Source of the DNA: Methanocellales archaeon
GTDB lineage: Archaea > Halobacteriota > UBA148
NCBI GenBank assembly: GCA_030019435.1
Contig: JASEEV010000006.1
Coordinates: 1 to 56,130 of the forward strand
DNA: 56,130 nt
Direction: 5' to 3'
The translations under genes and the position numbers were made by a program. The notes under the pieces are model-generated. The model was not told the origin of the DNA and made no database searches. It saw nothing but the letters and a program-made list of their open reading frames with translations. Positions 2,004 to 46,277 of the stretch are shown piece by piece. Each line of letters begins with the position of its first letter. The stretch's first letter is position 1.

Positions 2004-2013
2004 TGGTGGACGC

Positions 2014-4898: not shown

Positions 4899-4976
4899 GG
4901 AATTTGTTTTAAATTTCTTCTGAGCACACGGTCCATTGTCACCACTTGGTGGAAAACATAATAAGAAGTAAGTGGA

Positions 4977-5165
4977 TTATTTCTCCTCACTAGGTTTTAG
5001 TAATAGGTGCATCAGTTCGATCGCCAGAGTTGCCCCAATGAAAATGCCTGTAAAAATGAAGAACGGAAATCTAGAATCAACTGACACTCTAGTGGCAGAA
5101 TAAATTGAAACAGCAGCTGCAAGAGCCATTGCACTACCGGGTCCAGGGATATTAATTTGGTTCAT
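4977..5165 (-). CDS. Small hypothetical membrane protein (2 TM)
   Basis: 62-aa ORF with two hydrophobic segments; AAGGT-like RBS upstream. Confidence 0.45.
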   Translation of the reverse strand: MNQINIPGPGSAMALAAAVSIYSATRVSVDSRFPFFIFTGIFIGATLAIELMHLLLKPSEEK

Positions 5166-5255
5166 AATACTTACCTTTAGAAGATATTTTGTATATATTT
5201 TTTTCCGATATTTATTAGGGTACCACTATCTAGTCGAGACGAAGTACAAATGGGT

Positions 5256-6050
5256 TTACATAAGGCTTTTCTCAGAAATTTCTTCTACTGTAAGGTAGTA
5301 TTCAGCACTATAGCTATCTCTCAATCCTTCTAATTTGTTTTTAAGTTTAGACGATAAGTCTATTATGCGTTGCGAGATCTCGCATATTTCCCTTATCTGG
5401 CTTCTGACTTCGGGTTCTTCCCTTATTTCAAGCAGTTTCTCTCCCATTTTTGTCCAAAATAGATGGTAAACATTAGTATGAGGGAGTTGCTTTAAATCAT
5501 CAATTACGTAGGAGACAAAATATCCAGGGCAATAATCCCCATAATGGATTTTTTTGTTTTCTTTAGCCTTTTCGTTGAATTCTTCGACCAATTTCTTACA
5601 TTTACTGATAAACTCGGGTGTGTATATTAGTTCATCTAGTTCTGTTAACTTCTTCCTTAATTTTCTAATCTCTTTATCATGTGTTTCTACTTCTTTTGGG
5701 ATTTCAGTATTTCTTTTACAAAAATCACCATAAAGAACTTCTTCCTCTTCTTTGAGTGTAACAAACTCTTTAATATTCCGCATATTTTTAATCCTATGAT
5801 CCCAATCATAGCATTTTTCTTTGAGTAAACGTATTTCATCCTCTAGCTGGCTTATGAAGGGTCCGATAATCTTTCTACTTATTTCAGCTATTTTATGTCT
5901 TTCCTTCTCCTTCCTCATTTCATCCAATTGTCTCTTTCCAAATAAAACAGCTGCAATTGCCATAAAGAAAGTTGAAAATGCTATTACTATGCTACTAATT
6001 GCTGATACCCATTCAGGGGTTATGTTTATGGTTGTGTTTATAATTCCCAT
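5256..6050 (-). CDS. Hypothetical N-terminally anchored coiled-coil protein (AT-rich)
   Basis: 264-aa ORF with one N-terminal TM helix followed by a K/E-rich helical region; DNA visibly more AT-rich than the flanks. Confidence 0.75.
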   Translation of the reverse strand: MGIINTTINITPEWVSAISSIVIAFSTFFMAIAAVLFGKRQLDEMRKEKERHKIAEISRKIIGPFISQLEDEIRLLKEKCYDWDHRIKNMRNIKEFVTLKEEEEVLYGDFCKRNTEIPKEVETHDKEIRKLRKKLTELDELIYTPEFISKCKKLVEEFNEKAKENKKIHYGDYCPGYFVSYVIDDLKQLPHTNVYHLFWTKMGEKLLEIREEPEVRSQIREICEISQRIIDLSSKLKNKLEGLRDSYSAEYYLTVEEISEKSLM

Positions 6051-6210
6051 TCCTTCATCTCTTTAAGCGTGACGGTGGTGATAAAAGTCACATATGTTGT
6101 AATTGTGACTCTGTATCCTATTTGTTCGTCATAGGTTATGCTGTTTCCTCTAAGCTCACAGTCCACTTCCCGCCTTTCTCATTTTTTACGAGTAATCAGA
6201 CAAAAACTCC

Positions 6211-7713: not shown

Positions 7714-7858
7714 GTAGTTCCTATTTCTCTCATCTTTCTTATCATCTCTCTTAATATGTTGTGTTAGAGCATTGCTCGATCAAAGCAGAGTGGAAAATCG
7801 TGAAGAACAGAGTATATCGCTTCTGGAGTGATCGATAGGGCATAGTTGAAAGCTCCAC

Positions 7859-8239
7859 TTATAACAATCTCTTGATCTTGTCAGCCGTTTTCTCCATTTC
7901 CAAAAGGATCAAGCCTAATCCAGCCCCAGGGTTGCTCATGACGACCAAAAGGGCTTTAGGCCCTGCTCCTGCAGCGATCAACTTGCCCTCTTTTGATTCA
8001 ACGATGATCCTATCTGGAACTCCTTTCTTCAGCTCAGAAGTTGCGGTCTCTGCAGCTCCAAGCATCGTTGCACTCATAGCCGCAAAGGTCTTGGCACTAT
8101 AAGAACGTTGAGCAAAATCAGACGCCATCAGCAAGCCATCCCTTGAGACTATCGCAGAGGCTTCCACATCGCCCACATCTCTCAGATCCTCCAACACTTT
8201 TTCCAACATTTCAGCTATGGTCGTCACTTTTTCACTCAT
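7859..8239 (-). CDS. Roadblock/LC7 (MglB-like) protein
   Basis: ASAIVSRDGLLMAS..FAAMSATMLGAAE..GLILLEM; close paralogue of 42915..43280. Confidence 0.9.
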   Translation of the reverse strand: MSEKVTTIAEMLEKVLEDLRDVGDVEASAIVSRDGLLMASDFAQRSYSAKTFAAMSATMLGAAETATSELKKGVPDRIIVESKEGKLIAAGAGPKALLVVMSNPGAGLGLILLEMEKTADKIKRLL

Positions 8240-8262
8240 CCTTCTGATCGACGTTGTTGTAG

Positions 8263-8286
8263 CACACTACGATTGATTGTAGTGTG
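8263..8286. promoter_or_regulatory. Palindromic operator candidate between the divergent roadblock and HxlR genes
   Basis: CACACTAC-GATTGATT-GTAGTGTG, with perfect 8-bp arms. Confidence 0.45.
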
Positions 8287-8320
8287 TATTCAACTGATAT
8301 AATCTTTACTACGATAAATT

Positions 8321-8611
8321 ATGCTGTTGGATATTCTGAAAAGGAAGCACTTCTGCGATGTTTTTCTGCTGATCAAAGACGAGCCAAAGTCGTTCAATGA
8401 GATACAGAAGAAGTTGAACATGTATCCCGATACCCTAAATCGCCGGATAAAAGAGTTGTTAGGATATGATTTGATAGAATCCGTTGTCATCCAGGTAGAA
8501 GGAAGGGATCGCATCAAATATCAACTCACCCAGAAAGGAAAAGATATCTTACCTGAGATCGAGGAGTTTGTAAGGCTATCCAAAATGATCGAGAATAGAA
8601 TTAAATCATAA
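8321..8611 (+). CDS. HxlR-family winged-helix transcriptional regulator
   Basis: PKSFNEIQKKL..TLNRRIKEL..GLI..IKYQLTQKG pattern. Confidence 0.85.
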   Translation: MLLDILKRKHFCDVFLLIKDEPKSFNEIQKKLNMYPDTLNRRIKELLGYDLIESVVIQVEGRDRIKYQLTQKGKDILPEIEEFVRLSKMIENRIKS

Positions 8612-8757
8612 AGATTTGTTGTTGTTTTGAATTTTCAAGCGTTTTTCATCATAGTTACTGATAGTACTCGCCATTTGCTCCCTGTCCGCCCATCGATAAC
8701 CAATAAATATATATCCAAGGTGCGATGAAAGTTAGCAAAAAATGAGGAGGTGTAGTA

Positions 8758-8877
8758 ATGCACTGCGATCGTTGCACGAAGTGGATTGACATATTTGAGT
8801 ATCACGGCAACGGAGGACTATGCGACGAGTGCAAACGCCTGATCAGCGAATCGAGTACCTTCGCGGGTTTGGAGTGA
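8758..8877 (+). CDS. 39-aa zinc-finger micro-protein
   Basis: MHCDRCTKWIDIFEYHGNGGLCDECKRLISESSTFAGLE; two CxxC motifs; strong GAGGAGGTG RBS and an upstream AT-rich TATA-like box. Below the ORF-track cutoff. Confidence 0.7.
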   Translation: MHCDRCTKWIDIFEYHGNGGLCDECKRLISESSTFAGLE

Positions 8878-8940
8878 TATGCTTTTCTGCTGTGCTAAAT
8901 TCCGAGCGGTTTATTTTTCACTATGCTCCTGATAACATCG

Positions 8941-9290
8941 CTACTGTGGCGTTAAAATGATCTCATCACCACGTAGAGAGACCTTAACCTTTGTACCCTT
9001 TTTAAGGTTCAACTCCCTTTGAATTTCTTTTGGTATGTAAAAAGCTAGCTGTCCTCCACTCTTTGTAATTGTTCGAGTTAGAGCTCCAACATCACCATAT
9101 AACCCCAATCTTTCCGCCAGCTCTTGAGCATGCTCAGCTTCTCCAATAGATATCAGCTCAAAACCACATGTCTTACACTTATATCCTCCTACAGGAGGCG
9201 ATCCCTGGGGTAATGGGTATAGAGTATGGACTCGTTCATCTCTAGGTTGCACTTCCTACACCTTGGCACCTCACCCATCTTCTTAGTCAT
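8941..9290 (-). pseudogene. Zn-ribbon + AbrB/MazE-type DNA-binding protein, frameshifted
   Basis: Frame A from ATG 9290 reads MTKKMGEVPRCRKCNLEMNESIL.. then stops. Frame B carries YKCKTCG and ITKSGGQLAFYIPKEI..LKKGTKV (AbrB). The two CxxC halves lie in different frames. Confidence 0.7.
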
Positions 9291-9320
9291 CCTCCCATTC
9301 GTCATGACATGTGGTACTGC

Positions 9321-9662
9321 TCAGTCTGCGCTCACCTTCACCGTGAACTCCGTGCTTGACTTCGGTTCTATCAGCACCTTCTTCCCTTTTTCGATGTGAT
9401 AGTAGTCTCGTAGTAGTGCAGGTATTCGTATTATCTGTGTTTTGCCCAAGGCACCGACTTTGACCTCAAACTCTTTTTCCTTTTTGAGTTTGAGCATGAA
9501 GTTTGCATCCAATGGGTGCAGGATCATGAACCCGCAGTCTGTGCATTTCCATGCTCTGAGTAATAGGTTTCTGTCCCTATATTTCGTTGGCTCGGTTGGC
9601 TTTCTACATTCTGGGCAGTTTGGACCTTTTGATGGCCATTCCATCTCTTCTTCTGTCGACAT
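9321..9662 (-). CDS. Zn-ribbon + AbrB/MazE-type antitoxin/regulator
   Basis: CPEC...CTDC followed by VGALGKTQIIRIPALLRDYYHIEKGKKV; GAGGTG RBS before ATG 9662. Confidence 0.8.
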   Translation of the reverse strand: MSTEEEMEWPSKGPNCPECRKPTEPTKYRDRNLLLRAWKCTDCGFMILHPLDANFMLKLKKEKEFEVKVGALGKTQIIRIPALLRDYYHIEKGKKVLIEPKSSTEFTVKVSAD

Positions 9663-9669
9663 AATCTTT

Positions 9670-9908
9670 TCACCTCTTTTTTCTTCGCTTGGTTGCTCCA
9701 GCATGGGTGATCAACCACACATGTTCGTTGAGGGATATCGACCAATCCTCCACGACAATTTTCTTTTGGTCTTCGAGCAGTCATCTCCATGCTCTAGTAT
9801 CTCAACTACATCGTGTAGGTCGAGTTTGAGATCACCCAGCTCGTGGTATGCGGTCAGCGAGGGGAGAACGAGCCGTCCTCGCCATTTCGGATAGACCTCA
9901 AACTTCAT
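9670..9908 (-). pseudogene. Putative toxin (DUF4258/RelE-like), frameshifted
   Basis: MKFEVYPKW..ELGDLKLDLHDVVEILEHGDDCSKTKRK, then a second frame gives KIVVEDWSISLNEHVWLITHAGATKRRKKR*, ending just before the antitoxin start. Confidence 0.55.
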
Positions 9909-9990
9909 GTGATATCCCCTTATGATATCCCTATATGATATCAATGTATATGTATCTTACGCCTGCTTTAAGAATGGTTGAGATCAGCTC

Positions 9991-10830
9991 TCACTTTTGT
10001 TCTCTCTCCATTTCCCTTTTGTACACTATCGTTCGATACGGAAATGGGATCTCGATGCCCTCTCTGTCGAATCGCTTCTTTATGGACTCACGTATATCGC
10101 AACCAACTTCAAACGCAGTCGACCGATCCTTTAGCCAGAAGGACAATCTGAGATTGACGGCAAAATCACCAAGCTCAGTTACCAGGACCTTTGGCGTCTC
10201 GGTCTTCATCACACCCTTGTGCCTCATTGCCTCTTCTATCATGATCTCCCTTGCCTTATCAATGTCGGAATCATAACTGATGCCAACGTTGACATACCAC
10301 AGCGTCTTTGGATCTGATATGGAAAAATTGATTATGGCCTCCTCACCGATGACCGCATTAGGGATTATCAACCGTCGATTATCCCATGTCTTTATCACAG
10401 TATGCCTCAGAGTGATATCCTCGATCTTGCCATGCTCATCCCGCACCGTCACGTAGTCGCCAACCCTGAAGGGTTGAAAGATCGCAAGGAATATTCCAGA
10501 AACGATATTCGAGAACGCGTTTTGGGCTGCCAAACCGAGTACGATAGCTGCGAAACCAGCGCCTGCGACCAAGGATATCGTAAGCTTCTCAAGCCCAGGA
10601 ATTATCGAGATCAAGACTATGATGCCGATCACGTAGATGAGCGCAACGACAAGCCGTCTGAATACCACATATGTGGTCTCGCTGACCTTTAGCCGACGGC
10701 TTACTCCCTTGAAATATTGTCTCAGGAAAACACCAACGATCCTTGCAACTATCCCAGTCGCAACTAAGATGATAATTGCGAGTACTACGATCTCCATTGG
10801 ACTATTTGGATTCAAAAGCGACATGATCAA
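9991..10830 (-). CDS. mscS: Small-conductance mechanosensitive channel
   Basis: GLAAQNAFSNIVSG..PFRVGD..GKIEDITLRHT..IPN..GIEIPFP. Confidence 0.93.
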   Translation of the reverse strand: MIMSLLNPNSPMEIVVLAIIILVATGIVARIVGVFLRQYFKGVSRRLKVSETTYVVFRRLVVALIYVIGIIVLISIIPGLEKLTISLVAGAGFAAIVLGLAAQNAFSNIVSGIFLAIFQPFRVGDYVTVRDEHGKIEDITLRHTVIKTWDNRRLIIPNAVIGEEAIINFSISDPKTLWYVNVGISYDSDIDKAREIMIEEAMRHKGVMKTETPKVLVTELGDFAVNLRLSFWLKDRSTAFEVGCDIRESIKKRFDREGIEIPFPYRTIVYKREMEREQK

Positions 10831-10864
10831 GTATTCTCCAGAGCCAGTTTAATTTTTTCGGTTA

Positions 10865-12622
10865 TCACAGCTCCTGATAATAATACTCGCCTTTTGCCTT
10901 TTGCTCCCTGTCCAGCTTCGATCCAAGTTTGTTTACCCTCGGTCTCTTGCTTTCTTCGTCTCGCCTAAATGTGATCTCCACCTTCTTTAGGAAGCAATTC
11001 ATGCCTTCGCGCATTTCAAAGGGACCGAGGGCATTTCCTTTCACGCTAGGTTCGCCCTCAAAGACCATCAACCTATCGCTGAGCAGATCGATCATGTAGA
11101 TGTCATGATCCACTATCATCACGCTGACGTCATTGTTCTCTGCAAATCGACGTATCATCTTGGTCGCCAACGCTCGTTGCTCGACATCTAAGTGCGCACT
11201 TGGCTCGTCCAAGATGTATAGATCCGCCTCCCTGCTCAAACATGCTGCTATTGCCACCCTCTGTAATTCTCCACCGCTTAGATCTGCCATATTCTGATCC
11301 AATAAACGCTCAAGTTGTAGCGGTCTGACGATCTCCGTATTATAGTAGCTGGAGCCGAACCGCTCTGTTATTGAGCGGAGGAATTTGTCGACTCTTATGT
11401 CTCGCTCTCTTTTGATGTACTGTGGCTTGTACGATATCTTTAGGTCCAGGTCTATGCTGCCAACATCTGGTTTGATCAATCCAGCAAGTATTTTAGCGAA
11501 TGTGGTCTTACCAATGGCATTTGGACCTACGATGCCCATGACCTCACCTCTTCGAACCTCCCCTCCCTCTATATCTAGTGTGAACTCGGGATATCTCTTC
11601 ATGAACCCATCAAATTGTGCAAGGACGAAAATCTCCTTTTGTGCCCTTGGTGCATGGACCTCAAATTTGATCTCTTCGGGGCGAATCCTAATATTTTCCT
11701 CTGGTAAAAATCCTCGCAGGTACTCATTGATGCCCACCCTAACTCCTTTTGGATGTGCAATGACACCATATCCTCCAGGAGCTCCATATGCTATATGCAC
11801 CGCATCAGCTAGTAGGTCCAAAATGGCCAGATCATGCTCAACGATCACTACTGTACTCTCCTTGGAGATCTCTCGAATCAGCTTGGCCGCTTTGATGCGC
11901 TGGTGTATGTCCAAGTAAGGTGTGATCTCATCAAAGAAGTAGAAATCCGCATCCTTGCTTATGCACATCGCGATGGCAACCCTCTGCAGTTCTCCTCCGC
12001 TGAGGTCAGCAACCCTCCTGTCTAGTATGTGATCGATGTCCAGCCTAGATGCCAACTCGTTTACCTCTCGCTCATCTGGGAACAACTCATGGACATCGCC
12101 ACCCATACTTGCAATCAGATCGATGTGCTGTGGTTTTTGCGCAACTCGAATCTCGCCTCTGGAAATCCTTCGCATGTATTCTTGTAGTTCTGATCCTCTG
12201 TAGTGGGAGATGATCTCATCCCATGGGGGATTCTCCCCTCCCAAATTTGGTTTTAGATCCCCAGCTAATATCCGTATGGCAGTGGTTTTTCCGATCCCAT
12301 TTTGACCTAATATGCCGGTGACCCTCCCCTCTTGTGGTATGGGTAGCCCATATAGGGCGAAACCATTTGCTCCATATCTATGCGTTTCCCTTTCCCTAAG
12401 CTCCTCTGACAGTTGGATGATCATGATTGCATCGAACGGACACTTCTTGATGCATATGCCACATCCAACGCACAGTTCCTCGGAAATCACTGGTTTTCTG
12501 TCATTGCCTATGATTACGGTCTCATCCCCCGTCCGCACCTTGGGGCAAAATCTCTGACATTCGTAGGTGCATTTTCGAGGTTGACATCGATCTTTGTCTA
12601 TAATTGCAATTCTCATGGACAT
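10865..12622 (-). CDS. Ribosome recycling ATPase ABCE1 (Rli1)
   Basis: N-terminal Fe-S domain (DRCQPRKC..CQRFCP, CVGCGICIKKCP), two ABC cassettes with LSGGELQR, C-terminal RPRVNK..GEYYY. Start at 12622 or 12616. Confidence 0.97.
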   Translation of the reverse strand: MSMRIAIIDKDRCQPRKCTYECQRFCPKVRTGDETVIIGNDRKPVISEELCVGCGICIKKCPFDAIMIIQLSEELRERETHRYGANGFALYGLPIPQEGRVTGILGQNGIGKTTAIRILAGDLKPNLGGENPPWDEIISHYRGSELQEYMRRISRGEIRVAQKPQHIDLIASMGGDVHELFPDEREVNELASRLDIDHILDRRVADLSGGELQRVAIAMCISKDADFYFFDEITPYLDIHQRIKAAKLIREISKESTVVIVEHDLAILDLLADAVHIAYGAPGGYGVIAHPKGVRVGINEYLRGFLPEENIRIRPEEIKFEVHAPRAQKEIFVLAQFDGFMKRYPEFTLDIEGGEVRRGEVMGIVGPNAIGKTTFAKILAGLIKPDVGSIDLDLKISYKPQYIKRERDIRVDKFLRSITERFGSSYYNTEIVRPLQLERLLDQNMADLSGGELQRVAIAACLSREADLYILDEPSAHLDVEQRALATKMIRRFAENNDVSVMIVDHDIYMIDLLSDRLMVFEGEPSVKGNALGPFEMREGMNCFLKKVEITFRRDEESKRPRVNKLGSKLDREQKAKGEYYYQEL

Positions 12623-12630
12623 CCCAAGAA

Positions 12631-12948
12631 TCAGTTTAGCAGGAGGGTCCAGCTTACCAACCAAAATGATAAGGTCATAAATCCTATATAGAGCCAATCC
12701 TTTGCCTTAAGCTCCCCAGTCACGTTAATCGACGGATAGATGTACTTTTGGACCAATATCGCAAAAACTAGGACGGTAAACCCAAACCCAGCTCTAGCCT
12801 GCGCTTCACCAGCCAGATAAAATGATGTGATGCCGGCAATAATTCCGAAGATGCCTGATACGACCGTTTTCTTGATGCCATCGATATGTTCTTTCTTTCT
12901 CTCTTCTTCGGTCTTCTCTGGTATTTTTGGAAAATCTGCTTTGCTCAC
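12631..12948 (-). CDS. EMC6-like small membrane protein
   Basis: HIDGIKKT..3 TM..KDWLYIGFMTLSFWLVSWTLLLN; archaeal family typically found upstream of ABCE1. Confidence 0.75.
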   Translation of the reverse strand: MSKADFPKIPEKTEEERKKEHIDGIKKTVVSGIFGIIAGITSFYLAGEAQARAGFGFTVLVFAILVQKYIYPSINVTGELKAKDWLYIGFMTLSFWLVSWTLLLN

Positions 12949-13023
12949 GCTGGACCTCCATCTATGTTGCTAAGACTTATGTTAACTTTTACGCTTATAT
13001 AATGTGTCCATAATTGAGGCACC

Positions 13024-14952
13024 ATGAAAGACAAAATGACGAGCGTGGATGTAGCAGTTGCTGCAGCAGAGCTGCAGATGCTGGTCGACGCAAAATTGGA
13101 CAAGGCATATCAATACGAAGATGAGATTCGGCTAAAGGCGTACGTCGCTAGGGAGCGCCATGACTTATTGATAGAGGCTGGTAAGCGGATACACCTGACC
13201 AAATATCCACGCCCCAGTCCGAGGATCGCGCCAAGCTACTCAATGTTACTCAGAAAGCACTTGATGGGCGGGCGAATCACATCGATAGAGCAGTATGATT
13301 TCGACCGAATCATCGAAATACATGTCCAACGAGGTGACATGAAAAGAATACTCATAGCAGAGTTGCTTCCCAGGGGCAATATAATACTGCTAAGCGAGGA
13401 TCGGAAGATCATACTACCCCTGAGGACGATGAGTTTACGCGATAGGAAGGTTCGGCGAGGTGAGCAATATACGTTTCCACCACCCCAGAAGAATCCGATC
13501 GATATAACGGAAAGCGAGCTGCAAGCTTTGTTTGAGGGATCTGATAAAAGTGTGGTCAGGATGCTTGCATCTAGGCTAAACATGGGAGGGCTCTATGCAG
13601 AGGAAGTGTGCATTAGGGCAAAAGTGGACAAAAATACGCCAGCTAGAGGTCTCTCATGCGCTCAACTGGGGGCAATTTACAATGCGCTACGCGAATTATT
13701 TGAGCCGATCCCCTCTGGCAAATTAAGTCCACACATAGTCCTTGCAAACGGAGAAGAAGTCGATGTACTCCCATTTGAGTTGTGCAGGTATGAGGGACAT
13801 GAGAAAGTATACTTTGGCTCTTTTAATGAAGCGTTGGATGAGTTCTTTTCTCGAAAGGCGATCCAAGAGGCCAAGCAAATCAAAGATGAGAAATTGTGCA
13901 CGTTGGAGCGAATGTTATATCAGCAAGAGCATGCGATCGAAAAATTCAAACGAGAAGAGAAGGAGTGCATAAAAAAAGCCGAAGCGATCTATGCCCAATA
14001 CCAATACATAGAGAGAATTTTTAAGCTCATTCACGATGCCAGAGAACAAGGTCCCTCTTGGAAAGAGGTCAAGGCTACAATAGAGGAGGTCGATGAGAGC
14101 GCTGGCATTCTGACGATCAGGTTGGATGGGATGCGCATCGATCTGGACATGAAACTGGGCATCCCGCAAAATGCCCAAAGATACTATCAGCGAGCTAAGA
14201 GAATCAGAAAAAAGCTTGAAGGTGCTCAAAGAGCGTTAGAGCAAACAAAAAAGGAGATTGAGCAAGCAAGAGCACGTGAAATCGAGCCCGAGCATGCACC
14301 TCAGCGAAGAATTCGCCAGAGAAAACACTGGTATGACCGATTTAGGCATTTCATATCTTCAGATGGATTTCTCGTCATCGGAGGACGAGACGCTAGCATG
14401 AATGAGGAGATCGTCAAAAAGCATATGGAAGCCAGCGACATATTCTTCCATACGCAAGCACGTGGCGCACCTGCTGTCATCATCAAGGCAGAACGCAAGA
14501 AGGTTCCTAGCTCGACGCTCGTAGAAGCAACTCAATTCGCCATCTCTTATTCTAGCGTCTGGAGAGCTGGACACTATGAGGGAGACTGTTACTGGGTTCA
14601 TCCAGAACAGGTTTCAAAGTCCACTAGAGCAGGGGAATATCTGCCAAAAGGAAGTTTTGTCATCAAGGGAAAAAGAAACTATCTCAAAGCACCGGTTGGA
14701 ATAGCGATTGGCATCGAGATAAATGATGAGACAAGGGTGATAGGCGGGCCTCCTAGTGCAATCAAGCAGAGGGCGAAGTACATCATAGAAATAGAGCCAG
14801 GGGAAAAGACGCAAAATCAGGTTGCGAAGGAGATATCAAAGATATTTTTGCAAGAGGCAGATGACGCAGATCAACTGCTAATCAAATCCATAGCATCCCC
14901 TGATTGCATCTCGAAATTCCTCCCTCCAGGAAACTCGAGGATCAAGATTTAG
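13024..14952 (+). CDS. rqcH: Ribosome quality control factor Rqc2/NEMF (NFACT)
   Basis: MTSVDV, SMLLRKHL, FDRII, GNIIL, NAQRYY, WYDRFRHFISSDGFLVIGGRDA, GEYLPKGSFVIKG. Confidence 0.95.
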   Translation: MKDKMTSVDVAVAAAELQMLVDAKLDKAYQYEDEIRLKAYVARERHDLLIEAGKRIHLTKYPRPSPRIAPSYSMLLRKHLMGGRITSIEQYDFDRIIEIHVQRGDMKRILIAELLPRGNIILLSEDRKIILPLRTMSLRDRKVRRGEQYTFPPPQKNPIDITESELQALFEGSDKSVVRMLASRLNMGGLYAEEVCIRAKVDKNTPARGLSCAQLGAIYNALRELFEPIPSGKLSPHIVLANGEEVDVLPFELCRYEGHEKVYFGSFNEALDEFFSRKAIQEAKQIKDEKLCTLERMLYQQEHAIEKFKREEKECIKKAEAIYAQYQYIERIFKLIHDAREQGPSWKEVKATIEEVDESAGILTIRLDGMRIDLDMKLGIPQNAQRYYQRAKRIRKKLEGAQRALEQTKKEIEQARAREIEPEHAPQRRIRQRKHWYDRFRHFISSDGFLVIGGRDASMNEEIVKKHMEASDIFFHTQARGAPAVIIKAERKKVPSSTLVEATQFAISYSSVWRAGHYEGDCYWVHPEQVSKSTRAGEYLPKGSFVIKGKRNYLKAPVGIAIGIEINDETRVIGGPPSAIKQRAKYIIEIEPGEKTQNQVAKEISKIFLQEADDADQLLIKSIASPDCISKFLPPGNSRIKI

Positions 14953-14959
14953 GTGGTGC

Positions 14960-16129
14960 ATGAAAAAAAGGTTCTTACAGGGAGTCAGCATCAATGTCAT
15001 CATATTGGGCATAGTCAGCTTTCTAGGAGATACGAGCAGTGAAATGATCATGCCCCTCCTCCCGATGTTCATAGTTGCCCTTGGTGGTGCTGGGCTGATC
15101 GTTGGTTTGATTGGTGGCTTGGGAGATAGCATAGCGAGCATACTAACGGTGTTTTCCGGCTATTGGTCTGATAAATTTGGAAAAAGAAAGCCATTTGTCT
15201 TTTCTGGTTATGCGATATCTGCCACATCAAAAATGCTCCTTGCATTCTCTCTCATATGGCAACATGTCTTTGTACTTAGGTCTTTAGAAAGAGCTGGTAA
15301 GGGGCTGAGAACAGCGCCAAGAGATGCAATCATTGCAGATTCAGCCCTAGCAAGGGGCAAGGCATTTGGCATCCATAGAGCCATGGATACAGGTGGCGCA
15401 ATTCTCGGTTCTATACTTGCTTTTGCTCTCTTCTGGTTTTTTAATCTTGACTTTAGGACGATATTCCTCATCGCCGCTGCTATAGCATTTCTTGCCCTCG
15501 CTCCGCTCCTGTTTGTAAAAGAACGAAAAAGGGAAGGGGGCATACAATCTATGAAGATCAGTTTCAAAGAATTGCCGAGATCGTTCCGTTTGTTTGTCAT
15601 CATAGCCATGATATTTGCACTCGGCAACTTCTCATACATGTTTTTCATATTAAGGGCACAACAATTTTTCCAGGCAAGAATGTCGGTAGCTCTGCCCATT
15701 CTTTTGTACGTATGGTTCAACATCATCTACACGACATTTTCGATCCCAAGCGGTGCACTCTCCGATAGGGTTGGGAGAAAAAACGTTCTTACTCTGGGCT
15801 ACTCATTATTTGGAGTGACTTGTATGGGCTTTGCCCTATCACCATCGTTGCTTTCGCTCATCGCTCTCTTTGGGCTCTACGGTCTGGTCTACGCATTAGT
15901 TGATGGAAACCAGCGAGCCTTTGCATCGGATTTTGTCGCAGAAGAGTTGAGGGGAACTGCATTGGGTACGTTTCACGCAGCCATCGGTCTAGCAACCTTG
16001 CCAGCTTCTTTGATCGCAGGCTTGTTATGGGATTTTGTCGGGTCAACAGCACCGTTTTACTATGGCTGTGTTTTATCCCTTGTGAGCACTGGCCTGTTCG
16101 TCGTATTCGTCAAGGGAAGTCAGTCCTAA
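14960..16129 (+). CDS. MFS transporter
   Basis: SGYWSDKFGKRKP, GKGLRTAPRDA, LSDRVGRK; about 12 TM helices. Confidence 0.93.
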   Translation: MKKRFLQGVSINVIILGIVSFLGDTSSEMIMPLLPMFIVALGGAGLIVGLIGGLGDSIASILTVFSGYWSDKFGKRKPFVFSGYAISATSKMLLAFSLIWQHVFVLRSLERAGKGLRTAPRDAIIADSALARGKAFGIHRAMDTGGAILGSILAFALFWFFNLDFRTIFLIAAAIAFLALAPLLFVKERKREGGIQSMKISFKELPRSFRLFVIIAMIFALGNFSYMFFILRAQQFFQARMSVALPILLYVWFNIIYTTFSIPSGALSDRVGRKNVLTLGYSLFGVTCMGFALSPSLLSLIALFGLYGLVYALVDGNQRAFASDFVAEELRGTALGTFHAAIGLATLPASLIAGLLWDFVGSTAPFYYGCVLSLVSTGLFVVFVKGSQS

Positions 16130-25543: not shown

Positions 25544-26794
25544 ATGCCTGAGGTGGGGATTTACAAGAGAAGAGGGCTAGAGATCTGGCTTGAGACTGCT
25601 GAGGATAACATCGAGCTTAAGTCCTCGGGTGCGCTCTCTAAATTGGCTTTTCCCTTGTTGAAAAGGGTAAACAAGATGTTAAGGAATGAGAAGCCAATCG
25701 AGGCGACTGAGGAGGAGGTGGTTTTAAGCACGTGGCTTCCACCGATTCCAAGCGAACCATTCCAAAGAGCCATAAAAGCCGAGATGGATATCTTGCTGAA
25801 GAGGAAATTCTCTCCCCAAGCGGTCTCAATGAATATTTCTGATTGTACACTCAATTGTAGCGAGTGCAACATAGTCGAGCATGAAGGAGAGCTCAAAACG
25901 AAAGAGGTGAAGGATTTTATAGCGCAGATCCAAGACCTTGGGGCGATTACAATTGGATTTGCGGAAGGAGACCCTCTTTTGAGAGAAGACCTTTTCGAAC
26001 TTATAGATTATATAGACAAGAAAAAGTCCATTGCGAGCGTTTTTACCCCCGGTCCTTTGTTGACGGATGAGGTGGCTGCGGAACTGAAAGAGCATGGAAT
26101 ATACGCCGTAATAACGGGAATTAAAAGCCCAATTCCCAGGGAGCATGATGCTGCGAGAGGACTAAAAGGAGCATTTGACAAAGCCGTAAGAGGGATGAAA
26201 AACGCGGTGGAGAATGATCTTTATGTTTCTATGCATACGCATGCAACACCGAAACTCGTGGAGAGCGGGGAGCTTACCAAAATCTACAAACTTGCCTCCA
26301 AGATTGGGGTTCATGAGTTGTCCATCTGGGACAGCCATCCAACCTGGAGTTATAAAGACAGAAAAGAGTTGATTTTGAAAGATAGGCACAGAGGGGAGAT
26401 CATGGAACTGTACAGGAAAGCAAACACCTCTAAAGAGGGACCAAGAATATTCTACAACGCTGTCTTTGAATCTCCAAAGCTCTTCGGCTGTATGGCAGGC
26501 AGGAGATGGTTGAACTTGATACACTCCGGAGACCTGACCCCCTGTACCTATGTACCAATCTCTTTTGGAAATATCAGGGAAGAAAGCGTGGAGAGGATTT
26601 GGAGAAGGATGCGCCAGTTTAAGGAATTCAGGAGGAAGAGATCCTGCGTGATGCTCGATAAGGAATTCAGGTCGAAATGTATCGACCCGTTCTCAGTATC
26701 TGACCTGCCCATCAGCTACAAAGATGTTGTTTTAGCCGAAAATCAAAGATTTTCAGGCTGTCAGAAACCCCCAAATGGGTTTCAACTCATTTGA
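25544..26794 (+). CDS. Radical SAM protein with Twitch/SPASM-like C-terminus (paralogue 1)
   Basis: CTLNCSEC, AEGDPLLR, GCMAGRR..GDLTPC..FGNI; N-terminal STWLPPIPSEPF. Confidence 0.9.
   Translation: MPEVGIYKRRGLEIWLETAEDNIELKSSGALSKLAFPLLKRVNKMLRNEKPIEATEEEVVLSTWLPPIPSEPFQRAIKAEMDILLKRKFSPQAVSMNISDCTLNCSECNIVEHEGELKTKEVKDFIAQIQDLGAITIGFAEGDPLLREDLFELIDYIDKKKSIASVFTPGPLLTDEVAAELKEHGIYAVITGIKSPIPREHDAARGLKGAFDKAVRGMKNAVENDLYVSMHTHATPKLVESGELTKIYKLASKIGVHELSIWDSHPTWSYKDRKELILKDRHRGEIMELYRKANTSKEGPRIFYNAVFESPKLFGCMAGRRWLNLIHSGDLTPCTYVPISFGNIREESVERIWRRMRQFKEFRRKRSCVMLDKEFRSKCIDPFSVSDLPISYKDVVLAENQRFSGCQKPPNGFQLI
26734..26783. repeat. Double-hairpin repeat element embedded in the 3' end of a CDS
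   Basis: GAAAATC-AAA-GATTTTC plus GAAACCC..GGGTTTC. The first hairpin is the reverse complement of GAAAATCTTTGATTTTC at 42461-42477. Confidence 0.7.
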
Positions 26795-38446: not shown

Positions 38447-38558
38447 GGGCTCGTAGCTCAGTTGGAAGAGCGCTGCCTTTGCATCCGAGGGGCTTCGCCC
38501 CATTCGAACCCCAAGGCGAAATAGGCAGAGGCCCTGGGTTCAAATCCCAGCGAGTCCA
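38447..38558 (+). tRNA. tRNA-Ala(TGC) with 39-nt intron at 37/38 (38484-38522)
   Basis: GGGCTCG/CGAGTCC acceptor, CTGCC-TTTGCA|intron|A-GGCAG; BHB central helix TTTG/CGAA. Confidence 0.92.
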
Positions 38559-38780: not shown

Positions 38781-41770
<2,990 letters not shown>

Positions 41771-41856: not shown

Positions 41857-41977
41857 GCCAAGGTGGCGGAATGGCTAACGCAGCCGCCTGCAGATGAAAA
41901 AGGAAAAAGGTCATCGGAAAACTACGTTTTCCTCGGTGGAGAGCGGCTTTTTGCCGGTTCAATTCCGGTCCTTGGCT
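41857..41977 (+). tRNA. tRNA-Cys(GCA) with 48-nt intron at 37/38 (41894-41941)
   Basis: GCCAAGG/CCTTGGC acceptor, GCCGC-CTGCAG|intron|A-GCGGC, U73 discriminator; BHB helix CTGC/GTGG. Confidence 0.9.
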
Positions 41978-41983
41978 TGCGAC

Positions 41984-42053
41984 TACTTCCGAAGGAAGTA
42001 GGAGTGCTGCAACGAAGTTGCAGCTAGGAGATTCTGAGCGAAGAATCGAGGAG
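41984..42053. repeat. Run of three GAA-loop hairpins between tRNA-Cys and 5S
   Basis: CTACTTCC-GAA-GGAAGTAG, GCTGCAAC-GAA-GTTGCAGC, GAGATTCTGAGCGAAGAATCGAGGAG. Confidence 0.75.
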
Positions 42054-42077: not shown

Positions 42078-42206
42078 TGAGCATAGCGGCCATGGCGACG
42101 GGGAAACTCCTGGTCCCATCTCGAACCCAGAAGATAAGACCGTCCACGTTCTATGCTGTACTGAGGTGCGCGAGCCCTTGGGAACCATAGGTCGCTGCTA
42201 TGCTCA
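42078..42206 (+). rRNA. rrf: 5S rRNA
   Basis: TAGCGGCCAT..CCCATCTCGAACCCAGAAGATAAG..GGGAACCATAGGTCGCTGCTA; terminal stem TGAGCATAGC/GCTATGCTCA. Confidence 0.96.
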
Positions 42207-42413
42207 CCTGTTTTATTTTGGGGTTGAGTAGCATTCGAGATATTGTCGATGGCGGCTGGCTCACCTAAGGGTTTTGTTTGTTATGAAAGATAAAAAAACT
42301 TGAATATTTAAATGGACTTGGACAGGAAAGTTGGGAGTTATGTGGAATGCTGGCAGGAGGATGGTTTCTTATATCTAAAAAGGAAATCGAATAAAATGAT
42401 CTATTTAAGTGCC

Positions 42414-42505
42414 AGCCCTTGGGAACCTAGATTGCGAGCGTAGCGAGTAATCGAGGATAAGAAAATCTTTGATTTTCGACCATAGATCGCTGCTATGCTC
42501 ACCTG
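42414..42505 (+). repeat. Second copy of the 5S rRNA 3' end interrupted by a 51-nt hairpin element
   Basis: AGCCCTTGGGAACC[42428-42478]ACCATAGATCGCTGCTATGCTCACCTG versus 42173-42210: one mismatch, and ACC is duplicated. Confidence 0.85.
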
Positions 42506-42918
42506 CTTTTTTCGCGCTCCTCTGGAATCACGACAACAGGACATGATGCCATGTTGATCAGATCTTGGGCTGTACTCTGGCGGATAAATCGATAAATCTT
42601 CTCAAATTTGTAATGTCCCATGACGATCATGTCATAATCCTTGGACATGTCAACGGTCTTCTTTGGGATCTCCTCTGCCTTGCATCTTATATCAAGCAGC
42701 TCATGGCTGGTTTCGACGCCTTGCATCCGTCCCATCTCCGCATATTTGTCTATTGCACCACGTCTTTTCTCGAGGGCTTCGTTCGTATCATCTGCGGTGA
42801 CGATGGTGACCATATGAATTCTTGCACCCAGTTGCTTCGCTAGTTCAGTTGCCGTTTTGACAACGTCCTCATCATCCTTCAACGGATTAACTGGAACAAG
42901 TATCTTTTTGAACATCAC
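42499..42918 (-). CDS. Universal stress protein
   Basis: FKKILVPV, DMIVMG, STAQDLINMASCPVVVI. Confidence 0.9.
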   Translation of the reverse strand: MMFKKILVPVNPLKDDEDVVKTATELAKQLGARIHMVTIVTADDTNEALEKRRGAIDKYAEMGRMQGVETSHELLDIRCKAEEIPKKTVDMSKDYDMIVMGHYKFEKIYRFIRQSTAQDLINMASCPVVVIPEEREKSR

Positions 42919-43280
42919 AACAACTCCTTTGCCTTATCAGCTGCCTTTTCCATCTCAACCAATATCAATCCCAAACCCGCCTCTGGTGGTGTCATGACGA
43001 TCAAAAGGGCTTTGGGACCGGCGCCAGTAGCGATCACCTTTCCTTTTGCGGACTCCACGATGATCCTATCTGGGATTCCCTTCTTCAGCTCCGCCGTTGC
43101 GGTCTCTGCCGCACCTAACATGGTGGCACTCATCGCAGCAAAGGTCTCAGCATGTATCCCAGGGGGAATGTCAGATGTCATGATCAGACCATCTCTTGAG
43201 ACGACGGCAGAGGCTTCTATATCACCAGTCCTTTTTAGATCACTCACTATTTTTTGGAGCGTTTCTGCAACTGTTGGCAT
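42915..43280 (-). CDS. Roadblock/LC7 (MglB-like) protein
   Basis: ASAVVSRDGL..FAAMSATMLGAAE; 1 bp downstream of the GTPase gene. Confidence 0.92.
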   Translation of the reverse strand: MPTVAETLQKIVSDLKRTGDIEASAVVSRDGLIMTSDIPPGIHAETFAAMSATMLGAAETATAELKKGIPDRIIVESAKGKVIATGAGPKALLIVMTPPEAGLGLILVEMEKAADKAKELL

Positions 43281-43281
43281 A

Positions 43282-44451
43282 TCATTTGACCTCTGTTATC
43301 ATGTCGATCAGCGTTTCAAATGCCTCAAACACACCTTTCTTTTCCGTCGCAACGGTTGGGACGATCGGCACCGATTTTGGGACTTTCATTCGCTCTCGTA
43401 GTTCATCCACGCTTAAAGCATCTGGCAGGTCTTGTTTGTTCGCTACGATCACATAAGGAAGCCCGTGTGCCCTCGCAGTCTCTAGCATCTGCTTCGCCCT
43501 GACGAAGTCCATCGGCTTTGATGAGTCTAACACAAGGAACACGCCCATCGCCTCGCCACCGAGCACTTTGAGAATGGGATCAAATCGTTCTTGTCCTGGC
43601 GTTCCAAATATGTCTGCTGCAAATCCTTTGTGGTCTATCCTACCATGATCCATCGCAACGGTAGTTCCAAGGCGGTCCACAGATACGGCTCTGCTCGAGA
43701 TCGCGTGGATAAAAGTGGACTTGCCAGAGTGGTATGCCCCTGTCACAAGGATCTTGGGTATGTATACCCGTATACCAGTAGGTCGAAACACTTTGAACAA
43801 CATCGATCGTTTCTTCACCTCAGCCCAGTCCACCTTTGAGACTCCAAAGTACTGTCCAAATATGACTCGTTCAGCAATTCCTCCGATCGTGACCACCGCA
43901 TCGAACAGCTCTTCTTTTATCTGTTTCAGTGTTTCCTCAGCATAGGGCCAAGCGGTGAAGTTGCAAACAAAGACGTTATTGTACGTCATATGGAGTTTTT
44001 TCCATTTTTTGACATACTCCAACGTCTCCTCCTCTCCACACAGGTCCATGAGGGTCGATAGGGGCTCAAACACGACCAGACCGCTGCCAAGCTCTTCCAT
44101 TGCCTTTGACAAAGTCTCATCCAATGCCCCGATGTTCTCCGGATCGGACACAACGTAGCGTTCATCAGAATCCGCTCCCACTAGTGCCGAATAAGCGTCA
44201 ACGATGATAAATCGATCCTCGAACTTTCCAACATCCCAGCCAAATTCGTTGAAGTGCTCTCTAACCGTATAGGGGGCTGAGCTGATAGTGACATATATTC
44301 CTTTCCCTCCTTGCATCAGATGGTGGTACAAGGTCTGCATCCCAAATACATCACCCTCGACACCAGGTTGTACGTAATATACCAATGACCTGCCTGGTGG
44401 AACTTCTCCACCCATGAAGTCATCCAGTTTTGGAATGCCTGTTTTGAGCAT
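43282..44451 (-). CDS. Fusion of a degenerate KaiC/RAD55-like domain with an MglA-like small GTPase
   Basis: N-terminal KTGIPKLD..GG with a broken Walker A (QPGVEGD). C-terminal GAYHSGKST, TTVAMDHG, FGTPGQERF, NKQD, PTVA. Confidence 0.88.
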   Translation of the reverse strand: MLKTGIPKLDDFMGGEVPPGRSLVYYVQPGVEGDVFGMQTLYHHLMQGGKGIYVTISSAPYTVREHFNEFGWDVGKFEDRFIIVDAYSALVGADSDERYVVSDPENIGALDETLSKAMEELGSGLVVFEPLSTLMDLCGEEETLEYVKKWKKLHMTYNNVFVCNFTAWPYAEETLKQIKEELFDAVVTIGGIAERVIFGQYFGVSKVDWAEVKKRSMLFKVFRPTGIRVYIPKILVTGAYHSGKSTFIHAISSRAVSVDRLGTTVAMDHGRIDHKGFAADIFGTPGQERFDPILKVLGGEAMGVFLVLDSSKPMDFVRAKQMLETARAHGLPYVIVANKQDLPDALSVDELRERMKVPKSVPIVPTVATEKKGVFEAFETLIDMITEVK

Positions 44452-44453
44452 TT

Positions 44454-45143
44454 TCAGTCACCCTTTATCACGATGTTCGCTCCTTCAATCTCATATTCGA
44501 GCCACTCTGTTAGTTTCGAGCCCAATCCTCTTGCCCTAATGAAAAATCGATCGTTCTCTTCTTTGATCTCAATCATACCGTCGACCAGTTGTTTGAGCGT
44601 TGCGATCGTCTGCTCATCGTGCATACCACTCTCGATCACATAGATACCGATGGCATCTGCTACTTTAATTCGGCCCGTGAAGACGTGTAAGAACCTGAAA
44701 ATGGTCTGCAAGTTGGAGTACATCAGCATCGTCGATAATGAGTTGATGATCAGTCTTGTTTTTTGAATACGGGCTCTCATATAGAACTGCTCAAAAAACT
44801 GACTTATCTTGACGCCGATGCCTGTTAGATCCACAGGGCTCGATGCCCTCTTTATGTTTTGCGTGTCGGATACATCCATCCCGAGCGTTCTTGATACGCA
44901 GTCCACGATTCCGAACCGCTCTCTGTCCTTCTCTATGTCCAGCTCGCTCTGCTCAAACCACTTGAGCACACCTTCACCGTGCTCTCTTGTGGATACGAGA
45001 ATAATTCCTTCACCGTTCATTAAGCCAGCATGCACGATGTTGTTGACAAATATCTCTTTCCCGCACATCGGCGGTCCAATTAGCATTATGTTCAGTCCGC
45101 CCTGGACTTTATCCAATTTTGGTATCCCGAGATGATATTCCAC
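44454..45143 (-). CDS. KaiC/RAD55-like ATPase-fold protein
   Basis: LGIPKLD, GPPMCGKE, SSPVDLTGIG, NSLSTMLMY, FRFLHVFTGR, LVDGMIE. Confidence 0.88.
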   Translation of the reverse strand: MEYHLGIPKLDKVQGGLNIMLIGPPMCGKEIFVNNIVHAGLMNGEGIILVSTREHGEGVLKWFEQSELDIEKDRERFGIVDCVSRTLGMDVSDTQNIKRASSPVDLTGIGVKISQFFEQFYMRARIQKTRLIINSLSTMLMYSNLQTIFRFLHVFTGRIKVADAIGIYVIESGMHDEQTIATLKQLVDGMIEIKEENDRFFIRARGLGSKLTEWLEYEIEGANIVIKGD

Positions 45144-45213
45144 GTTAATCTCCTTCGGATTAAGTTGCCTATTTATTACTATAAAATACTTATCCTTCTT
45201 AATTTTTTGAAAG

Positions 45214-45639
45214 TGAGTGAGGAGAGTAAGCCCCCTTTTGTTTCAGCGGCATTCGTCTGAGCGTCATACTCGGGCATCGGCTGGACTCCTTATCTGCCCA
45301 TCTTTGACTTGCACCTACGAGGTTTCGCCGTTCCATCCATGCATGCACGACCTCATCGTCAAAAATCGCAAAAGCGATTTTCTCCTCCTCGATTCTTCGC
45401 TCAGAATCTCGGTTCCGAATCATCGCATTGGTGCAGCGTGGTATCGTTTCTGTGCCAGAGCCAAGACTCTCGCCTTGTGCGCTTACATGCACTCGTATGT
45501 CCAGACGGTGGGGGGACTTTCCTCGCAACCTTTTTGCAAGCAAAAAGGCGTTTCTGTTGCACAGAAACAGCCTCTTTCTACGCAAGTAGAAAGCTGCTTG
45601 ACCAAAAAGTTGTGGCAGCCGCCCTTCCTCTCTCAATCA
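45214..45639 (-). ncRNA. rnpB: RNase P RNA (expanded by two repeat insertions)
   Basis: Minus strand has GAGGAAAGTCCCCCCACC (P4 5' strand, 45524-45507), CAGAAAC, AACAAAAGGGGGCTTA (P4 3' strand) and terminal P1 pairing GAGAGAGGAAG/CTTACTCTCCTC. Confidence 0.93.
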
Positions 45640-45686
45640 TATATTCACGCAAAAAGCATATACCTTTTGCTCCCAAATAACAAAAT

Positions 45687-46277
45687 GTGTTGACTCTAGA
45701 AGAAGGCGTAAGGGCAGTAAAGCTTGCTAGGAACGCAGTCGAGAAATACGTTAGAGACGGTGAGGTACTCTGCCCAGAGAAGCTGCCGAAAAAATTTAGT
45801 GAGAAGAGGGGCGTATTCGTTACCTTAAAGAAGAACGGCCTAAGAGGATGTATAGGGCATCCATATCCGACTGTGCCATTAGGCGAAGCGATCATCGACT
45901 CTGCGATAAGTTCCGCTGCGAAAGATCCAAGATTTATGCCTCTTAGCGCAGAGGAGCTGGACAAAATAACGATTGAAGTGACGGTGCTAACCCCTCCAAG
46001 ACCGATTCGTGCTAAGCCAACGATGTTACCGAAAAAAATAGAGATCGGGAAACATGGGTTGATCATCACCAGGGGACGAAATCAAGGGCTTCTGTTACCA
46101 CAGGTTGCCGTTGAACATGGTATGGACGAGGAGGAGTTTCTCTCTCAGACATGCATGAAAGCAGGATTGTATCCAGACGCGTGGTTGGAAGAGGGTACGC
46201 AAATATATGTTTTCGAGGGGCAAATATTCGTTGAGAAAACGCCAAGAGGAGACGTAGAGGAAAGGAGAATCACCTAG
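45687..46277 (+). CDS. AMMECR1/TIGR00296 family protein
   Basis: GVFVTL..LRGCIG, DPRF, GKHGL, GLLLPQV, KAGL. Confidence 0.93.

Follow-up and report, generated by a model that had tools for sequence, protein, structure and literature searches.

An archaeal RNase P RNA gene enlarged in P3 and P12 by hairpin modules related to tRNA introns and a pre-5S spacer

The window considered here is the whole 56,130-nucleotide stretch of DNA analysed from a Methanocellales archaeon (assembly GCA_030019435.1, contig JASEEV010000006.1, positions 1 to 56,130), and the subject is its rnpB, the gene for the RNA of ribonuclease P (RNase P), which lies on the minus strand at 45215–45634 and encodes an RNA of 420 nt. 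The gene is genuine and expressed, its product is an archaeal RNase P RNA of type A, and two peripheral helices of that RNA, P3 and P12, are enlarged by additional hairpins. The reading that we favour, with a probability of about three in four, is that of a normal RNase P ribozyme with tolerated, fast-turning-over expansion segments that were copied at the DNA level from a shared pool of hairpin modules, a pool which in this class would otherwise occupy tRNA introns and the spacers of stable RNAs. In the mechanism envisioned, a 35-nt palindromic element would have taken the place of the P3 loop, lengthening P3 coaxially and carrying two hairpins nested in its apical loop, and the distal part of P12, paralogous to the pair of hairpins in the tRNA-Cys/5S spacer, would have gained its first hairpin recently. 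Copying is placed at the DNA level because both orientations occur; as for the inserts, they point away from the conserved core and are for this reason regarded as tolerated and not as required.

The identity of the gene is clearly established by the Rfam model RF00373 (RNaseP_arch), which cmscan matched on the minus strand over 45215–45634 with 196.9 bits (gathering threshold 84) and an E-value of 3.7e-57, covering model positions 1–288 of 288, including the P8/P9 and P15–P17 parts that are missing from type M RNAs. The same model was matched in 26 of the 31 genomes searched and gave a single match in the whole of this assembly (1.42 Mb in 87 contigs, 94% complete). Conserved regions CR-I (GAGGAAAGUCC, RNA positions 111–121), CR-II (ACAGAAACGA, 182–191), CR-III (AUGGAACGG, 299–307) and CR-V (ACAAAAGGGGGCUUA, 394–408) are present in order and agree with the Rfam consensus. 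A TATA-like box candidate, GTATATG in the RNA sense, was read by eye on the minus strand at 45657–45663; with its centre about 26 nt ahead of the 5′ end of the RNA, it may be the promoter TATA box of rnpB. No mcrA was found in this genome, and the sequencing runs that contain the rnpB locus are mainly labelled as groundwater metagenomes. The locus is best explained as the single functional rnpB of an uncultured, small-genome, mcrA-less Halobacteriota archaeon from groundwater, with an ordinary catalytic core and a predicted activity. An earlier, sequence-only reading had called an RNase P RNA enlarged by two repeat-derived multi-hairpin inserts at this locus; the match over the full model, the hairpins described below and the two copies of a 26-nt string thus confirm what it had observed.

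The enlargement is confined to two places. In the cmscan alignment 79 nt stand at the P3 loop against 3 in the consensus, and a block of inserted residues falls in distal P12, such that the excess amounts to about 74–75 nt in place of the P3 loop and about 52 nt in distal P12. How unusual this is can be judged from a comparison set of 14 genomes of the class (0.7–1.6 Mb) and from genomes further afield. All five relatives of the same family (G001–G005) have a 294-nt RNA with short P3 and P12, in which CR-I lies at position 36 and the span from CR-II to CR-III is 65 nt in the three with both anchors matched; the corresponding values here are about 110 and 117 nt. The comparison with sister genomes that the sequence-only reading proposed therefore came out in its favour. 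Elsewhere in the order, the RNA measures 401 nt in G007 (P3 longer by 81 nt, P12 by 25) and 376 nt in G009 of the same genus (P3 short, P12 longer by 76), 432 nt in G008 (P3 longer by about 68, P12 by 76) and 312 nt in G010, which shares the genus of G008 (P3 longer by 23, P12 short), so the lengths of P3 and P12 shift even within a genus. Outside the order, CR-I starts at or before position 43 in 16 genomes of the phylum, as expected of a short P3; P3 is short in 35 of 35 other archaeal RNase P RNAs measured, and the span from CR-II to CR-III, which holds P12, ranges from 28 to 283 nt in the phylum. The earlier description of P3 and P12 as established length-variable, protein-binding helices is thus apt for P12, which is known to vary and to bind L7Ae, and does not fit P3. 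By arithmetic from match coordinates, 172 nt separate the 5′ end of the present RNA from the conserved block that precedes CR-II; over the same interval a G007-like metagenome contig has 179 nt, and 19 other Halobacteriota RNAs have 82–126 nt.

The expansion is specific to RNase P RNA, since the signal recognition particle (SRP) RNA measures 312–317 nt in 11 of the 11 class genomes where it was found and the 16S and 23S rRNA lengths of this genome agree with their models. Over aligned columns the RNase P RNA is 71.5% identical to that of G008; its identity to the same-family RNAs, over 293 columns of a MAFFT alignment, is 84–85%, a value that is lowered in part by misalignment of the 5′ end. 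This alignment overturned an initial estimate of about 93% for the core. No relative closer to this genus turned up in pattern scans of genome and metagenome contigs; of the latter, the nearest (L074 and L080) are G007-like, with RNAs of 401 nt.

The P3 helix with its insert occupies 45525–45613 on the minus strand (RNA 22–110), as delimited both by cmscan and by the segment that differs between strains. Within it lies an 84-nt composite palindromic element (45526–45609), which on the plus strand reads antisense to the RNase P RNA. Its outer parts, a 22-nt 5′ half with copies in genomes of the class (CAACCTTTTTGCAAGCAAAAAG, 45526–45547) and a 3′ half defined by alignments and single in the window (GCTTGACCAAAAAG, 45596–45609), join into the 35-nt palindromic element, CAACCTTTTTGCAAGCAAAAAGCTTGACCAAAAAG. 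Between them stand two perfect nested hairpins of 8 bp each, GTTTCTGT/ACAGAAAC at 45550–45568 and CTTTCTAC/GTAGAAAG at 45574–45593, the second of which is identical in a tRNA-Leu intron of G008. These are two of the three perfect P3 hairpins that the sequence-only reading had listed, and the remaining one, also of 8 bp, was located at 45529–45548, where it represents an alternative pairing of the P3 3′ strand that competes with a longer P3 stem. In the minimum free energy (MFE) fold the longer stem prevails: P3 is lengthened coaxially, with CAACUUUUU pairing with AAAAGGUUG and CAAGCAG pairing with the 3′ strand, and the lengthened stem closes in a three-way junction with the two nested hairpins. 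The longer stem is supported by the P3 of G010, which forms the same long hairpin without the nested parts. The pairing of the middle hairpin (45550–45568) survives two-sided changes in intron copies, for example GUUUCUGU/ACAGAAAC, GUUUCUGC/GCAGAAAC and GUCUCUAC/GUAGAGAC; copies of G013 and G009 show such changes. The ends of the 84-nt element form inverted repeats, CCTTTTTG...CAAAAAGG, because the element is itself a hairpin, and no flanking target-site duplication was consistent across the contexts compared.

By its sequence, the P3 insert is a tRNA-intron element that is common in this small archaeal class. BLAST with the 84 nt gave matches in 12 of the 14 class genomes at E≤1, the best of them in a D-loop intron of a G008 tRNA-Leu gene (96% over 50 nt plus 94% over 32 nt), where the middle hairpin of the composite has another 49 nt nested in its loop; with two tRNA-Arg(TCG) introns the alignment extends along all 84 nt, at 75–77% identity. 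ARAGORN recognized tRNA genes in 8 of 13 context sequences, with the element matches falling inside their introns, and four of the five remaining contexts are, by eye, tRNA-Leu genes on the opposite strand. Alone or as a core, the 35-nt element makes up an intron in the anticodon loop of tRNA-Arg(TCG); tRNA-Leu genes have it, in either orientation, as a D-loop intron, and still other tRNAs are interrupted by it too. Its 22-nt 5′ half occurs with 0–3 mismatches in 9 of the 14 genomes (0 for a reversed control pattern), with exact copies in G007, G008 (three), G010, G012 and G013, and nine aligned copies of the 35-nt element reach 93% column identity. A covariance model of the uninterrupted element, R1, for which 150 of 387 candidates were scored, matched 10 of the 14 genomes at E≤0.01; the match in the rnpB P3 of G010 scored 46.8 bits at the same place and in the same orientation as here. 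Within the same scored candidates R1 detected neither the copy in the present rnpB, which it missed because that copy is interrupted, nor a further one elsewhere in this genome. Mosaics of multi-copy hairpins also make up the P3 inserts of G007 and G008, and the inner hairpins of the G007 P3 are 86% identical to the nested part of the G008 tRNA-Leu intron. More distant kin are present in this genome, namely its tRNA-Arg(TCG) intron, a diverged relative of the 35-nt element, and ten hairpins of the form ACC(C)TTTT...AAAAGGT beside or inside tRNA genes, of which five shuffles contained none.

Within the assembly itself, searches with BLAST (word size 9), nhmmer, a pattern and a covariance model found no second copy of the P3 insert; the best other match in the genome spans 15 nt at E 0.46, and each outer half of the element is unique in the window and in the assembly. 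With one copy in a 94% complete assembly and one to four loci per genome in relatives, the element is not multi-copy in the manner of a miniature inverted-repeat transposable element (MITE). The description of the P3 insert as repeat-derived therefore rests on tRNA introns of sister genomes and on public reads, where it holds, and finds no support from another copy in this assembly. In the same vein, the last two hairpins are indeed nested, inside the 35-nt element, and the statement that they lie within a "family-2 unit" could not be verified as written, the outer halves being unique.

Public sequencing runs, examined as assembled contigs over 45100–45750, comprised three of DNA (X1–X3) and one metatranscriptome (X4). 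They bear first of all on the possibility that the enlarged gene is a mis-join, in which an assembler would have fused rnpB, a tRNA-Leu intron and an rRNA spacer through short repeats in a mixture of strains. Contigs of X1 and X2 with 0 differences bridge both junctions between the core and the P3 element (45495–45555 and 45580–45643), an RNA contig spans 45562–45634, and all four runs have contigs that pass through the P12 region without a break, which makes such an artefact exceedingly improbable. What can be said for it is that at least two strains coexist in the sampled runs, that the same 84 nt also stand in a tRNA-Leu(CAG) context in those runs, and that the tRNA-Leu(CAG) gene of the assembly has a different intron, so the genome may be a composite of strains.

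The coexisting strains differ in P3 itself. In contigs of X1–X3 a second allele has the 89-nt P3 (45525–45613) swapped exactly for 43 other letters, the ends of which resemble the P3 of G007; one contig of this allele is 2704 nt long at a depth of 185. In the strain that carries it the P12 insert is still present and differs by a substitution at 45407 and the loss of 1 nt at 45370. The identical 84 nt were also found in a third context, with TGGTCAAA before them and, after them, sequence that ends in 20 letters identical to tRNA-Leu(CAG) on contig C22; the 30-letter flank as a whole has no match in the assembly at up to three mismatches, and the 19–20-nt tRNA part alone matches, on C22. These flanks identify the third context as a tRNA-Leu(CAG) gene whose D-loop intron consists of the 84-nt element, such that the P3 allele of the window is the exact antisense of a tRNA-Leu(CAG) D-loop intron in the sampled population. 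In X1 and X3 the depth of the 84-nt unitig approximates that of the window-form junction plus that of the tRNA-Leu context, which is compatible with one strain holding both copies. The tRNA-Leu(CAG) gene of the assembly (C22:30445–30625), missed by ARAGORN, has a different, 83-nt D-loop intron that starts with CAACCCTTTTCC, like the ends of the other P3 allele. Among relatives, D-loop introns of the same kind occur in several tRNA-Leu genes, in both orientations.

Given this kinship, it might be supposed that the inserts are bulge-helix-bulge (BHB) introns, cut out by the splicing endonuclease to leave a mature RNA of about 294 nt like that of the relatives. The P3 insert is, after all, homologous to genuine tRNA introns (94–96% to that of G008, with the 22-mer exact in tRNA introns of five genomes), and this organism splices many long introns, ARAGORN reporting them in 19 of its 38 tRNA genes at lengths of up to 235 nt. 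The RNA contigs of X4 point the other way. They cover 45532–45591 at depths of 297 and 885 and 45562–45634 at a depth of 804, linking the P3 insert to the mature 5′ end at depths of 300–800; the contig that reaches 45634 continues with CCC and adapter letters, which places the RNA 5′ end at 45634. Overall the contigs of this one run show depths of 300–15000 over 45364–45634, and a bin at 45386–45407, within the 26-nt module of P12, has a depth of 3140 compared with 6 for the neighbouring gene. No contig joint in X4 skips the P3 or the P12 insert, and no insert-less form was seen. A scan for the motif of helix, 3-nt bulge, 4-bp helix, 3-nt bulge and helix found it with the correct span in six of six control tRNA introns, and no match brackets either insert; the closest relaxed match would need three G-U pairs and pairing with CR-I. 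With 38 strict matches in the RNA against a shuffle mean of 23 the scan is unspecific and was used solely to ask whether any match brackets an insert, so on its own it is weak evidence, and together with the RNA contigs it argues against splicing. In addition, the P3 copy is antisense to several of the intron copies. Excision as introns is accordingly very improbable, and the inserts appear to stay unspliced in the RNA.

The P12 extension has different relatives. Its distal part (45359–45419 on the minus strand, RNA 216–276, as set by alignments) is a module of two hairpins. One is the perfect hairpin AAAAUCGC-UUUU-GCGAUUUU at 45362–45381, which is ancestral in the order; the other, GAUUCU-GAGCGA-AGAAUC, lies in a 26-nt stretch at 45385–45410 that is an exact match to 42028–42053 on the plus strand, in the spacer between tRNA-Cys (41857–41977) and 5S rRNA (42082–42203). 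This match had been noticed from the sequence alone, and it holds up well: the string occurs exactly twice in the window, BLAST returned these two copies and no more from the 1.42-Mb assembly, and it matched in 0 of 100 shuffles. As rnpB is on the minus strand and the rRNA operon on the plus strand, both transcripts carry it in one and the same sense. The accompanying proposal that an insert in the P12 region has its sequence elsewhere was likewise correct, cmscan placing the insert in distal P12 and the spacer providing a paralogue. A third, diverged two-hairpin module lies at 42419–42483 on the plus strand (nhmmer E 0.005 for the whole genome; local alignment score 52 against 14.0 ± 2.4 for shuffles) within a duplicate of the 5S 3′ end (about 42400–42512) that belongs to direct repeat family D3.

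The alignments indicate that the P12 extension and the two-hairpin module of the tRNA-Cys/5S spacer are paralogues, and relatives in the order hold a module of like design in that spacer. When expanded P12s (those of this genome, G008 and G009) were aligned locally to spacer modules, z-scores were 5.5–16.7 and at most 1 of 300 shuffles, mostly none, scored as well; for the present extension against tRNA-Cys/5S spacer modules the values are 7.7–16.7 and 0 of 300. By the same local alignment, the P12 of G009 did not match the spacers of G012 and G010 (z about 0), and the unexpanded P12s of G001 and G010 did not match the spacer modules (z≤2.5). The distal extension is absent from five of five same-family RNAs, and its 3′ part is common to G007, G009 and G008; the hairpin AAAAUCGC-UUUU-GCGAUUUU with its flanks occurs in these three and here and is missing from the five same-family RNAs and G010, a distribution from which it follows that the hairpin is old in the order and was lost more than once. 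Compared with the P12 of G009, the present one has about 26 extra nt (RNA 220–245), namely the hairpin GAUUCU-GAGCGA-AGAAUC, and these nearly coincide with the 26-nt match. The claim of recent spread therefore stands for about 26 lineage-specific nt, and not for the rest of the extension, which is old and common to three relatives in the order. In same-family genomes the tRNA-Cys/5S unit and rnpB are neighbours, 180–450 bp apart; here the distance is about 3 kb and the 26-nt copies are 3.3 kb apart. Given this proximity, the inverted orientation and the pre-existing similarity, ectopic gene conversion is the simplest source of the 26-nt identity, and the first P12 hairpin was probably gained recently in this lineage by such conversion with the spacer copy.

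About 45 nt of the 5S 3′ end are duplicated 290 nt downstream of the 5S gene, and the two-hairpin module that interrupts the duplicate ends in GAAAATCTTTGATTTTCGA. An 18-nt perfect palindromic hairpin, CGAAAATCAAAGATTTTC, lies at 26737–26754, downstream of an open reading frame, and its reverse complement is found at 42460–42478 in the 5S-duplicate module.

Could the inserts be adaptive instead, serving as extra platforms for protein binding or tertiary contacts, for example as L7Ae/kink-turn (K-turn) sites in P12 or as a P3 platform that alters dimerization of the holoenzyme, with one protein binding all copies? The basic element is 94–100% conserved across families whose ribozyme cores are only 71–82% identical, hairpin pairing is retained through two-sided changes, and the P12 extension begins just past a conserved GAUGA...GAUGAGG motif that matches the Rfam consensus. 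There is structural precedent as well: in the Methanocaldococcus jannaschii holoenzyme (PMC6565675, PMC5499556), L7Ae is bound to a K-turn in the P12 extension, Pop5 sits at the P2–P3 junction, and Rpp30 contacts the short P3 of the partner RNA. However, what P3 contains varies from one co-occurring strain to another and among species within a genus, and all five same-family genomes do without both inserts, so no particular insert can be essential. Moreover, a standard K-turn fitted by hand at the distal P12 hairpin suits the present RNA and not the modules of G007 or G009. We regard an adaptive role as unlikely.

Another, still more doubtful proposal is that sequences are exchanged, for a functional reason, within one pool made up of the ribozyme's P3 and the class's tRNA introns. 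The P3 extension could pair with introns of the enzyme's own substrates, or both could share a binding protein, such as Pop5-Rpp30 or the splicing endonuclease; in a weaker form, elements of BHB introns could be actively mobile DNA able to colonise genes other than those for tRNA. If the stronger form were true, 5′ processing would be coupled to intron-containing pre-tRNAs, and the ribozyme and the introns would evolve in concert.

Several points weigh against tolerated, DNA-level copies as the explanation. Near-identity of the element (94–100%) across families is odd for neutral sequence and could reflect either selection for a function or recent horizontal spread. The copying has no assigned direction for either pair, intron and P3 or spacer and P12; its mechanism is deduced rather than seen in action, and this assembly has no second copy of the P3 element. 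The RNA evidence consists of assembled contigs of one run, and since contig assembly drops rare forms, a minor spliced species is possible. High-depth X4 contigs are, moreover, confined to 45364–45634, with 45215–45363 at a depth of 150, which may be an effect of contig building or filtering. Finally, cleavage of pre-tRNA by the 420-nt RNA, with or without the inserts, is a prediction.

How does this gene compare with known systems? An extension past P12 is common in archaea, according to PMC6565675. Type-A RNAs with a K-turn-bearing P12 extension share with the present one the match to the whole model, the conserved regions and, at the foot of the extension, the GAUGA...GAUGAGG motif; they differ from it in that P3 is here about 75 nt longer and the P12 extension is paralogous to a spacer module of the rRNA operon. 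Because Rpp30 contacts the short P3 in the M. jannaschii holoenzyme, a P3 of this length may affect the dimer contacts. In Thermoproteales, one intron sequence has spread among tRNA genes (Fujishima 2010, as related in PMC4090602), and the 35-nt element shows the same pattern. The present case differs in that it concerns Halobacteriota, both orientations and nested hairpins, and in that the element entered P3 of rnpB, where it has no BHB and is kept in the RNA.

Repeats within rnpB have a bacterial counterpart, too. Helix P12 of rnpB in heterocyst-forming cyanobacteria reportedly contains STRR repeats, tandem heptamers said to have been described by Vioque in 1997. The likeness lies in a genome-wide repeat family that lengthens a peripheral helix of the RNase P RNA gene. 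The STRR repeats are tandem heptamers in P12, whereas the present inserts consist of palindromic hairpins that recur in tRNA introns and in spacers, and they involve P3 as well; Tandem Repeats Finder returned 0 rows for 45150–45700. With rRNA-type expansion segments and MITE-like palindromic insertions in genes for stable RNAs the inserts share lineage-specific structured tips, an intact core and fast turnover, and they differ from these in having no multi-copy family in the assembly, no clear target-site duplication and identifiable donors, namely intron and spacer modules.

Three known phenomena thus meet in one gene, namely the peripheral tolerance of RNase P RNA, the spread of archaeal tRNA introns and the presence of repeats in rnpB. 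What is new is an unspliced element of an intron family in P3 of a ribozyme, a P12 extension from the neighbouring pre-5S spacer, and P3 alleles that differ between coexisting strains; intron-like elements in archaeal rnpB were not described in the literature searched, in which most subscription journals are unrepresented. Hairpin modules of tRNA introns and of a pre-5S spacer can, it seems, settle in a ribozyme and persist in its RNA, and here it is the enzyme that processes pre-tRNA which would have taken up, unspliced, the hairpin element that interrupts its substrates, together with the spacer module. Two P3 alleles in one natural population would represent turnover in progress. The system lends itself to asking how archaeal intron elements move at the DNA level, how much load P3 can bear, considering the short, Rpp30-contacted P3 across the M. 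jannaschii dimer, and whether a common protein underlies the conservation of the hairpins. There is also a warning for annotation, in that length-based or strict models may overlook an rnpB of this kind, just as ARAGORN overlooked a tRNA-Leu gene with a D-loop intron.

Elsewhere in the genome, the long tRNA introns (e.g., C22:16618–16926, C9:10879–11127 and C11:16474–16706) are chains of perfect hairpins that recur between genes, and some of the ARAGORN labels "Stop" and "SeC" are probably mis-assigned owing to introns. The core of the tRNA-Cys intron (41898–41942) has copies of 93–97% identity at C11:74493–74536, C18:6876–6914 and C8:9317–9349, which sit in tRNA introns (C11 and C8) and in a spacer between tRNA genes (C18). 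A 25-nt piece of 23S rRNA (40353–40377) recurs letter for letter in a 151-nt tRNA intron on C8 (about 9290–9316), and the tRNA-Ala intron in the 16S–23S spacer (38488–38512) is 80% complementary to the same piece. In relatives (L038 and L042–L045; G009, G013, G012 and G010) several tRNA genes are followed by 20–30 nt, the hairpin AAGAAAATCTTTGATTTTCGA and then a direct copy of the last 13–15 nt of the tRNA, and upstream sequence can pair with this copy to form a mini-helix resembling an acceptor arm.

As for the surroundings of rnpB, four minus-strand genes (42499–45143) separate it from 5S rRNA; judging from their translations, one would encode a universal-stress-like and another a roadblock/LC7-like protein, and the other two KaiC/RecA-like ATPases, of which one has a small GTPase-like part fused to it. 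Past the 3′ end of rnpB the contigs of co-occurring strains diverge, some leaving the window sequence at 45202, and the intergenic stretch 45137–45159 shows many small differences among those strains.

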